Shown here: positions 9,001 through 11,561 of the stretch, piece after piece
Layout: each line of letters begins with the position of its first letter
Position numbering within the stretch: position 1 is the stretch's first letter
From: a virus
Taxonomy: Duplodnaviria; Heunggongvirae; Uroviricota; Caudoviricetes
Virus record (IMG/VR): IMGVR_UViG_2695420422_000005
Strand: one strand, 5' to 3'
Length of the DNA stretch: 11,561 bases
Made by a program: the position numbers

Positions 9001-11561
9001 AAAGTCAGCGATGACGATCCGCATTACCACTCCGACCACATCCAGCGGTGGCGGAACAACCAACGCCCAGTTTACCTATATTAATCACGGAACAGATTAT
9101 TCACCTGGCTGGCGAAGGGACTATAACTCCAGAAATAAGCCAACGGCATCAGAGATCGGGGCGCTACCGTCAGGTGGAACAGCAGTATCATCAGTTAATC
9201 TGGCTTCAAAAGGTCGGGTAGCCGCGCTGACAGACAATACGCAGGGGGCAGCAGGTCTTGAGTTATACGAGGTGTATAACAACGGATATCCAACAGCGTA
9301 TGGAAATATCATTCACCTGAAAGGGATGACAGCCGTTGGCGAAGGTGAGTTACTCATCGGCTGGAGTGGTACAAGCGGTGCTCATGCTCCGGCATTTATT
9401 CGTTCACGACGGGATACGACCGACGCAAACTGGTCGCCGTGGGCGCAGCTTTACACCTCGGCTCATCCTCCTGCAGAGTTTTATCCAGTCGGTGCACCAA
9501 TCCCGTGGCCATCAGATACCGTTCCGTCTGGTTATGCCCTGATGCAGGGGCAGACTTTTGACAAATCTGCTTACCCGAAACTTGCAGCCGCTTATCCGTC
9601 AGGCGTGATCCCTGATATGCGTGGCTGGACGATTAAGGGCAAGCCCGCCAGTGGTCGTGCCGTATTGTCTCAGGAACAGGATGGCATTAAATCGCACACC
9701 CACAGCGCCAGCGCATCCAGTACGGATTTGGGGACGAAAACCACATCGTCGTTTGATTACGGCACTAAATCCACGAATAACACCGGGGCGCATACGCACA
9801 GTCTGAGCGGCTCTACAAGTTCAGCTGGGGCCCACCAACATAGTCAGACTGGGCCCAGAACGAATAGCGGGAGTCAACCTACTGGAATGTTTCCGGCAGG
9901 GAGTACTCAAGTTAGCGGGACTAATCAGGTTGGTATCAGTGGCTCATTAACCAGTGGCACCTCCCAATGGGTAGGTAAATCATCTTCAGAAGGAAACCAT
10001 ACACACTCACTGTCCGGCACAGCAGCATCTGCGGGTGCACACGCGCATACTGTCGGTATTGGTGCTCATACGCACTCTGTTGCGATTGGTTCACATGGAC
10101 ACACCATCACCGTTAACGCTGCTGGTAACGCGGAAAACACCGTCAAAAACATCGCATTTAACTATATTGTGAGGCTCGCATAATGGCATTCAGAATGAGT
10201 GAACAAGCACGGACCATAAAAATTTATAACCTGCTGGCCGGAACTAATGAATTTATTGGTGAAGGTGACGCATATATTCCGCCTCATACAGGTCTGCCTG
10301 CAAACAGTACCGATATTGCACCGCCAGATATTCCGGCTGGTTTCGTGGCTGTTTTCAACAGTGATGAGTCATCGTGGCATCTCGTTGAAGATCATCGGGG
10401 TAAAACGGTTTATGACGTGGCTTCCGGCGACGCGTTATTTATTTCTGAACTCGGCTCATTACCGGAAAATGTCACCTGGTTATCCCCGGAAGGGGAGTTT
10501 CAGAAGTGGAACGGCACAGCCTGGGTGAAGGATACGGAAGCAGAAAAACTGTTCCGGATCCGGGAGGCGGAAGAAACAAAAAACAGCCTGATGCAGGTAG
10601 CCAGTGAGCATATAGCGCCGCTTCAGGATGCTGTGGATCTGGAGATCGCAACGGAGAAAGAAACCTTGTTGCTGGAAGCTTGGAAAAAGTATCGGGTGTT
10701 GCTGAACCGTGTTGATACATCAACTGCACCGGATATTGAATGGCCAGTAGCACCTATAGGGTAAATTCGTAATGATTACCTAAATACGTTATTCTTTTGT
10801 TAAAAAAGTGATTTTGCTATAGGTAGGGAGTATGTTCTTGGATTAAGAATAAAAAATCGCCATGAAAGAGCTTCATGGCGAGTACATAAACGTACAAAAT
10901 GTGATGAAAGTAGAGTGGCGTAAGCCACTATATTAAGATATGACAATAGCGAAGAAAAGTAAATAACATTTTATGGACGTTTAATTGTTAATTATAAAAA
11001 CTAGAGTGCCCGATATTGTTTATCTTGCTTTAAAATAATGTACTCAAACCAAATTTTTGAGCTAAAAGCTCAAATAATATAAATGCAATAATAATGTTTA
11101 ATAAGACAATTAGCTTGCTTTGTATTTTCATTTCGGAATACTGTTAAGTAACTTTGATGACCCTAACAATAGATCGGAATTTTCTTAGAGTCAATGGTCA
11201 CTGTTTTTGCTTGCAAAGCAAATGTTTTGGTGGTTATAAGTCGTCTTAATATAGTCACGCATGCAACTTGTTCCATGCGGAGATTAAAGATTGGAATATA
11301 ACGCGAAGATGGAATTAAATTACATTTGCAATAATTAATTTATTATTACTCAATAATTACCGATATTATTATTGTAAATTAATCATTAGAATGCAAAAAG
11401 AAATGTAACGGCAAAATAAGAGGACGATAGCTGAGAAAAAAGCGTGCTTTCCCAATCTGGGGCAAATCACGTCTGAATGACACCTGAAAACAGGTGGTAG
11501 CCTCAAGAAGGCTGGTGATGCTGCCAACTTACTGATTTAGTGTATGATGGTGTTTTTGAGG

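Follow-up and report, generated by a model that had tools for sequence, protein, structure and literature searches.

IS1 at the end of a phage tail-fibre region

The window analysed here, 11,561 bp long, is the entire scaffold CXAZ01000129.1 (assembly GCA_001251955.1). It breaks off shortly after a pair of phage tail-fibre genes, and its last 48 bases had been read in an initial annotation as the left end of an IS1 element, oriented rightward with the insA side proximal. Does an IS1 really adjoin the tail-fibre genes, and if so, what has become of the prophage DNA beyond it?

Positions 11514–11561 on the plus strand (GGTGATGCTGCCAACTTACTGATTTAGTGTATGATGGTGTTTTTGAGG) are identical to the left terminus of IS1, nucleotides 1–48, at 48 of 48 positions. 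This sequence occurs a single time within the whole window and was matched in none of 200 dinucleotide-preserving shuffles with up to 3 mismatches tolerated (expectation 0). The same 48 bases start the annotated full-length IS1A copies of E. coli O78 strain 3 and of ten complete Shigella sonnei-type genomes, and the terminal inverted repeat of the window begins with GGTGATGCTGCCAACTTACTGAT, as in the annotated IS1A of E. coli O78 strain 3. The left inverted repeat, which we take to be about 23 bp long, would cover 11514–11536. In relatives, insA starts at IS1 nucleotide 56, equivalent to window position 11569 and thus 8 nt beyond the last base (11561), which bears out the rightward orientation with insA proximal. 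The identification as an IS1 left end therefore stands, as does the placement of the element next to the tail-fibre genes: it lies directly downstream of the tail-fibre and tail-fibre-assembly genes (Table 1).

The window end is a correctly recognised, ordinary IS1 end at an assembly break, with nothing new in kind. Compared with IS1 of E. coli and Shigella (IS1A/IS1-like, IS1 family), the terminal 48 nt are identical, and the element itself is without any difference. The usual IS1 has a 9-bp target duplication, whereas the copy at the tfa-side junction is without one and the DNA adjacent to it has been lost.

Short-read assemblies break at repeats. IS1 is the commonest insertion sequence in Shigella, where it makes up 46–73% of the 229–348 IS insertions per reference chromosome (PMC7373316). 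We attribute the end of the sequence after 48 IS1 bases to a draft short-read assembler that could not cross this high-copy repeat. The IS1 end accounts for where the scaffold ends, and beyond such bookkeeping it has little importance.

Table 1. Features of the window and of related loci. Positions refer to the window unless another locus is named.
Feature	Position	Strand	Basis or remark
Run of 48 N, scaffold gap inside tail gene J	4223–4270	.	Sequence
stf-like side tail fibre gene, 1027 aa	7100–10183	+	Pfam phage_tail_N, Phage_fiber_2, Collar; gene calls
Tail fibre assembly gene tfa, 193 aa	10183–10764	+	Pfam Caudo_TAP, E = 4.6e-44; annotated tail fiber assembly protein in E. coli O78 strain 3
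AT-rich spacer (27–36% GC), prophage accessory region between tfa and IS1	10765–11513	.	Composition; phage identity
Hairpin CACCTG-AAAA-CAGGTG	11481–11496	+	Sequence; 17 nt between hairpin and first IS1 base
Hairpin AGCCT-CAAGA-AGGCT, 5 bp, ending exactly at the junction	11499–11513	+	Fold
9 bp adjoining IS1 on the left, AAGAAGGCT, expected target-duplication copy	11505–11513	.	No second copy right of IS1 in relatives
IS1 nt 1–48: left inverted repeat and part of the insA upstream region	11514–11561	+	48/48 match
intS 3' remnant or equivalent	E. coli O78 strain 3 locus 9236–9319		
intS 3' remnant or equivalent	ev099, about 6950–7036		
intS 3' remnant or equivalent	CP023645 13561–13644		

A full-length IS1 with three different right junctions

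Window positions 4659–11561 are 100% identical to CP023645, CP019689, and LR213458, the three genomes checked base by base; CP019689 is Shigella sonnei 75/02 (PMC5447701). The paper on that strain assigns accessions with adjacent CXB* prefixes to S. sonnei, which makes this species the very probable source of the window. An identical tfa protein together with an identical left flank (GTGGTAGCCTCAAGAAGGCT) is found in ten complete genomes, and each of the ten has a full-length IS1 at the junction (768 bp in nine, 767 bp in one). The element starts with GGTGATGCTGCC in the relatives, and the length of ~768 bp and a right repeat ending in ...GGAGTCATTACC are common to those 10 genomes and E. coli O78 strain 3. 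In most of the S. sonnei-type loci, gene calls carry the Pfam domains InsA (Zn_ribbon_InsA), HTH_Tnp_IS1, and DDE_Tnp_IS1, and the copy in E. coli O78 strain 3 is annotated as 'IS1-like element IS1A family transposase' with a programmed frameshift (insA/insB).

To the right of the element, three flanks were found: AATTGGGTG in nine S. sonnei-type genomes, where IS1 exits into AATTGGGTGGATGATATGG; ACGGTGCTG, a fragment of the usher gene yfcU, in LR213458; and CTTATTGGC in E. coli O78 strain 3. When these right flanks were compared with the left-hand AAGAAGGCT, no relative had a 9-bp target duplication around the junction IS1, contrary to the expectation that one would be found. The next IS1, at a distance of 7 kb (CP023645 locus, 18311), served as a control and has a perfect 9-bp duplication, TACCTAATG. 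The missing duplication would reflect a deletion after insertion and is no argument against the identity of the element as IS1.

Comparison with genomes that lack the insertion, which the initial annotation had proposed as a way to the uninterrupted locus, did recover it. In phages mEp332 and ev099 the site is empty and the sequence runs on uninterrupted at the junction; measured against them, the E. coli O78 type has IS1 in place of exactly 550 bp and the S. sonnei type in place of exactly 741 bp. The two losses begin at one left nucleotide, with the smaller nested in the larger. The LR213458 allele has the same left junction fused to the distant yfcU fragment; it is collinear with the chromosome and therefore represents a deletion of the whole att/intS/argW-to-yfcU interval.

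We estimated allele frequencies from junction counts over 5426 complete E. coli genomes. The empty site is present in 829 of them, the occupied left junction in 79, and the 550-bp-type right junction in 101, and the simple-insertion right junction with its duplication (IS1 right end, AAGAAGGCT, and uninterrupted phage DNA) in none. For the S. sonnei-type right junction, the best 15 matches in E. coli were all two-piece, most of them being the 550-bp type. The exact left junction had no match in species-representative genomes, probably because that set holds one genome each for Shigella and E. coli.

The lost DNA contains a 64-nt stretch that is 100% identical by BLAST to the 3' part of a chromosomal tRNA-Ser gene (mEp332 locus 3862–3925; likewise in ev099). 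ARAGORN called no tRNA in the deleted DNA because the tRNA-Ser copy is a 3' fragment, and a permissive Rfam search returned indirect matches. This fragment looks like an att-site remnant of another integrative element within the phage accessory region.

Probable stepwise loss of DNA on one side of IS1

Among these alleles, IS1 is retained, the left junction is constant, and DNA is missing relative to the empty site. Three right junctions (550-bp, 741-bp, and yfcU fusion) share the one left junction, none with a target duplication, as befits the rearrangement-prone spot that had been suspected here. A constant left and a variable right junction together form the classic signature of IS1-promoted deletion. 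From this comparison we infer a single ancestral insertion and an IS1-promoted route of deletion, and we consider it very probable that the locus consists of a full-length IS1 in a lambda-like prophage that has undergone stepwise right-side loss by IS1-promoted events, with the scaffold broken at the repeat.

The 48 bases would then be the outer (IRL, insA-proximal) end of the full-length IS1, lying in an AT-rich accessory ('moron') region between tfa and an AraC-like regulator gene. The prophage is most probably 75/02pp2 of Shigella sonnei, integrated at the tRNA-Arg gene argW. We suggest the following steps. First, a single IS1 would have inserted after ...CAAGAAGGCT in a phage-borne locus. 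Second, DNA to the right would have been lost stepwise through IS1-promoted events, by intramolecular transposition from the IRR end or by recombination with a (transient) second IS1, which would leave the IRL junction fixed and remove the target duplication. Third, E. coli would have been left short of 550 bp and S. sonnei of 741 bp, and one S. sonnei strain would have lost all DNA as far as yfcU; the 64-nt 3' fragment of tRNA-Ser would have gone with this DNA and, in S. sonnei, also the whole upstream region of the AraC-like gene. We found no intermediate that carried a pair of IS1 copies, and transposition and IS1 × IS1 recombination leave the same product. One point against this account is that the ancestral simple insertion that it postulates is missing from the 5426 complete E. 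coli genomes.

In the classical gal/lac IS1 deletion series, one IS end and its flank are likewise fixed, the IS is kept, the loss on the opposite side is variable, and there is no duplication. Unlike in the gal/lac series, the deletions at this junction are seen by natural-genome comparison only, in which the two routes are indistinguishable. The locus illustrates clearly, in natural genomes, how one IS1 junction stays fixed when nested losses of differing size occur opposite it, and IS-mediated erosion of this kind has already been described as driving the decay of Shigella genomes.

The IS1-plus-deletion allele was found with two integration modules, at the lambda attB beside bioA in E. coli O78 and at argW/intS in S. 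sonnei. A tentative and rather doubtful extension of the scheme is that this allele might be a phage-borne, horizontally spreading IS1 copy that eroded the tRNA-Ser remnant and then the AraC-like control region. If this were true, and if the regulator were intact and IS1-driven in some lineages, it would be a case of IS1 rewiring a prophage-encoded regulator.

Alternative explanations for the junction

Could IS1 instead have inserted independently at one hot-spot nucleotide in two prophage lineages, that of E. coli and that of S. sonnei, with a separate deletion after each insertion? IS1 prefers AT-rich targets, and the target here is AT-rich. The IS1 copies of E. coli O78 strain 3 and S. sonnei CP023645 differ at 6 of 768 nt, the junction copy of S. 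sonnei CP023645 is identical to the neighbouring IS1, and in E. coli WY517-2 another IS1 endpoint falls within the same stretch of 300 bp. Each Shigella species has also experienced an expansion of its own resident IS1 variant (PMC7373316), as independent insertions would have it. However, this explanation needs the same nucleotide, the same orientation, and the loss of the duplication, each twice, and the smaller deletion is nested in the larger. Gene conversion among many IS copies, moreover, readily erases or creates differences, and the 6 differences and the identity to the neighbour fit gene conversion among copies as well as independent hot-spot insertions. We regard independent insertion as unlikely and favour a single insertion with later IS1-promoted losses.

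Strain WY517-2 deserves a separate description. There, the IS1 right flank lies at +458 of the empty-site region, and the left flank adjoins rclA; two IS1 copies in opposite orientation bracket rclA (locus 1–2600), one of them joining the phage AraC-like gene region. An IS1-linked rearrangement has parted the accessory region from its tail genes in this strain. Given this endpoint, the region may have been involved in more than one IS1-linked rearrangement.

A role of IS1 as a mobile promoter for neighbouring genes is very unlikely. The gene concerned would be the AraC-family gene to the right (Pfam HTH_AraC/HTH_18, phrog_1450): in S. sonnei, the right end of IS1 stands 15 bp before its ATG and the native upstream sequence is replaced, which means that any transcript of this gene must start in IS1 or pass through it. 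Against this, the gene is frameshifted in S. sonnei by a 1-nt deletion at nt 409 (CP023645 locus 12115–12857), while it is intact in E. coli O78 (locus 7789–8532) and in the phages. To the left, the tail genes have their 3' ends towards the IRL, and the sole sigma-70-like match in the 48 bp, CTGCCA-16-TATGAT at 11521–11548, reads inward to insA, in agreement with the known IRL promoter of IS1. The outward promoter that had been envisaged is thus not seen in these 48 bp.

It is highly improbable that the insertion is plain and recent, with its 9-bp target duplication intact and no DNA lost. Such duplications are normal for IS1, as the neighbouring copy in CP023645 illustrates, and the right side of the element lies outside the window; yet every relative with the same left junction has a right flank other than AAGAAGGCT and is missing at least 550 bp of the empty site, and the predicted right junction occurs in 0 of the 5426 complete E. 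coli genomes. Scarcely credible, too, is a solo IS1 terminus or truncated IS1 without transposase in the source strain: 48 bp are visible and the scaffold stops there, but short-read contigs ordinarily run a few dozen bases into a repeat of high copy number and then stop, and in 10 of 10 complete genomes that match the tfa protein and the left junction exactly, the IS1 is full-length.

The prophage continues beyond IS1 in relatives

In S. sonnei, homology with the phages and with the prophage of E. coli O78 extends for a further 1545 bp to the right of IS1, a stretch in which the AraC-like gene and two transposase fragments lie. Next come a P4-type intS-like integrase gene (385 aa), tRNA-Arg (CCT), and then homologues of yfdC and mlaA. 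We place the prophage at argW because intS and tRNA-Arg follow the phage DNA. IS1 lies ~2.8 kb inside the S. sonnei prophage, and prophage region 75/02pp2 was classified by PHAST as 'lambda-like, intact' (PMC5447701). The suggestion that IS1 delimits a truncated prophage does not hold, since the closest complete genomes continue with ~1.5 kb of phage DNA before reaching intS and tRNA-Arg, where the attachment site lies. Judged by these relatives, IS1 would mark the end of the tail-fibre module, not of the prophage.

Prophage 75/02pp2 and the phages mEp332 and ev099 (Radostvirus) share 96–99% identity over the tail fibre, tfa, and an accessory region that contains the AraC-like gene as well as transposase fragments. 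Unlike the window, mEp332 and ev099 have the empty site, and they carry a lambda-type int and att core, in contrast to the S. sonnei prophage at argW beside a P4-type intS; in ev099, the att core is that of lambda and the int is lambda-type. The accessory region of E. coli O78 strain 3 ends beside ybhB-bioA, the lambda attachment region. Relatives of this lambda-att type (E. coli O78, ev099, and mEp332) keep 84 bp from the 3' end of the argW-type intS as a remnant (Table 1). The remnant lies where homology to the S. sonnei prophage stops and is the predicted breakpoint of an integration-module swap. Such a difference in integration modules is ordinary lambdoid mosaicism.

The two halves of the scaffold come from different prophages

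The gap within gene J (Table 1) limits how much of the window can be read together with IS1: only 4271–11561 is reliably contiguous with it. The left half, 1–4222, is 99.8% identical to another, IS-riddled lambdoid remnant in S. sonnei CP023645, and the right half corresponds at 99.9% to the argW prophage. The two matches in CP023645 are ~680 kb apart. In J-gene coordinates, the halves overlap by ~146 bp. The 'split J gene' (ORFs 2757–4304 and 4334–6448) is therefore no pseudogene but an artefact of assembly or scaffolding. The scaffold is unreliable as a whole, its two halves belonging to different prophages in complete genomes.

Phage DNA to the left of IS1

The spacer between tfa and IS1, which forms the left flank of the insertion, is without a supported gene. 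Over its 749 bp it is 98.5–99.2% identical to phages mEp332, PhiR70_1, and ev099. Small ORFs in the spacer, including a 52-aa ORF that spans the junction, had no Pfam or PHROG match.

Two hairpins precede the junction (Table 1), and folding of 11440–11513 gave -25.2 kcal/mol (z = -2.48). The CACCTG-AAAA-CAGGTG hairpin is real; it had been placed 18 bp before the insertion, and the difference from our count is one of counting convention. We assign both hairpins to phage DNA, outside IS1, because mEp332 and ev099, in which the site is empty, carry this sequence too. As terminators, they were considered and rejected: neither is followed by a T-run, and a terminator scan called neither.

An Rfam search of the window and of phage mEp332 had IS009, within tfa, as its only match; the spacer and the hairpins gave none. 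The IS009 (RF02111) match is full-length, at 10526–10724 on the plus strand, and reaches 218 bits, the gathering score being 117. It sits within the 3' end of tfa, is also found in mEp332, and bears a family label that is unrelated to insertion sequences.

The minus strand of the spacer has two further features. An ORF of 33 aa at 11030–11131, strongly hydrophobic (MKIQSKLIVLLNIIIAFILFELLAQKFGLSTLF) and with no Pfam or PHROG match, could encode a small membrane peptide, be a toxin-like gene, or be nothing. Terminator-like hairpins were found at 10881–10857 and 11074–11056, a count of 2 against 0.3 expected.
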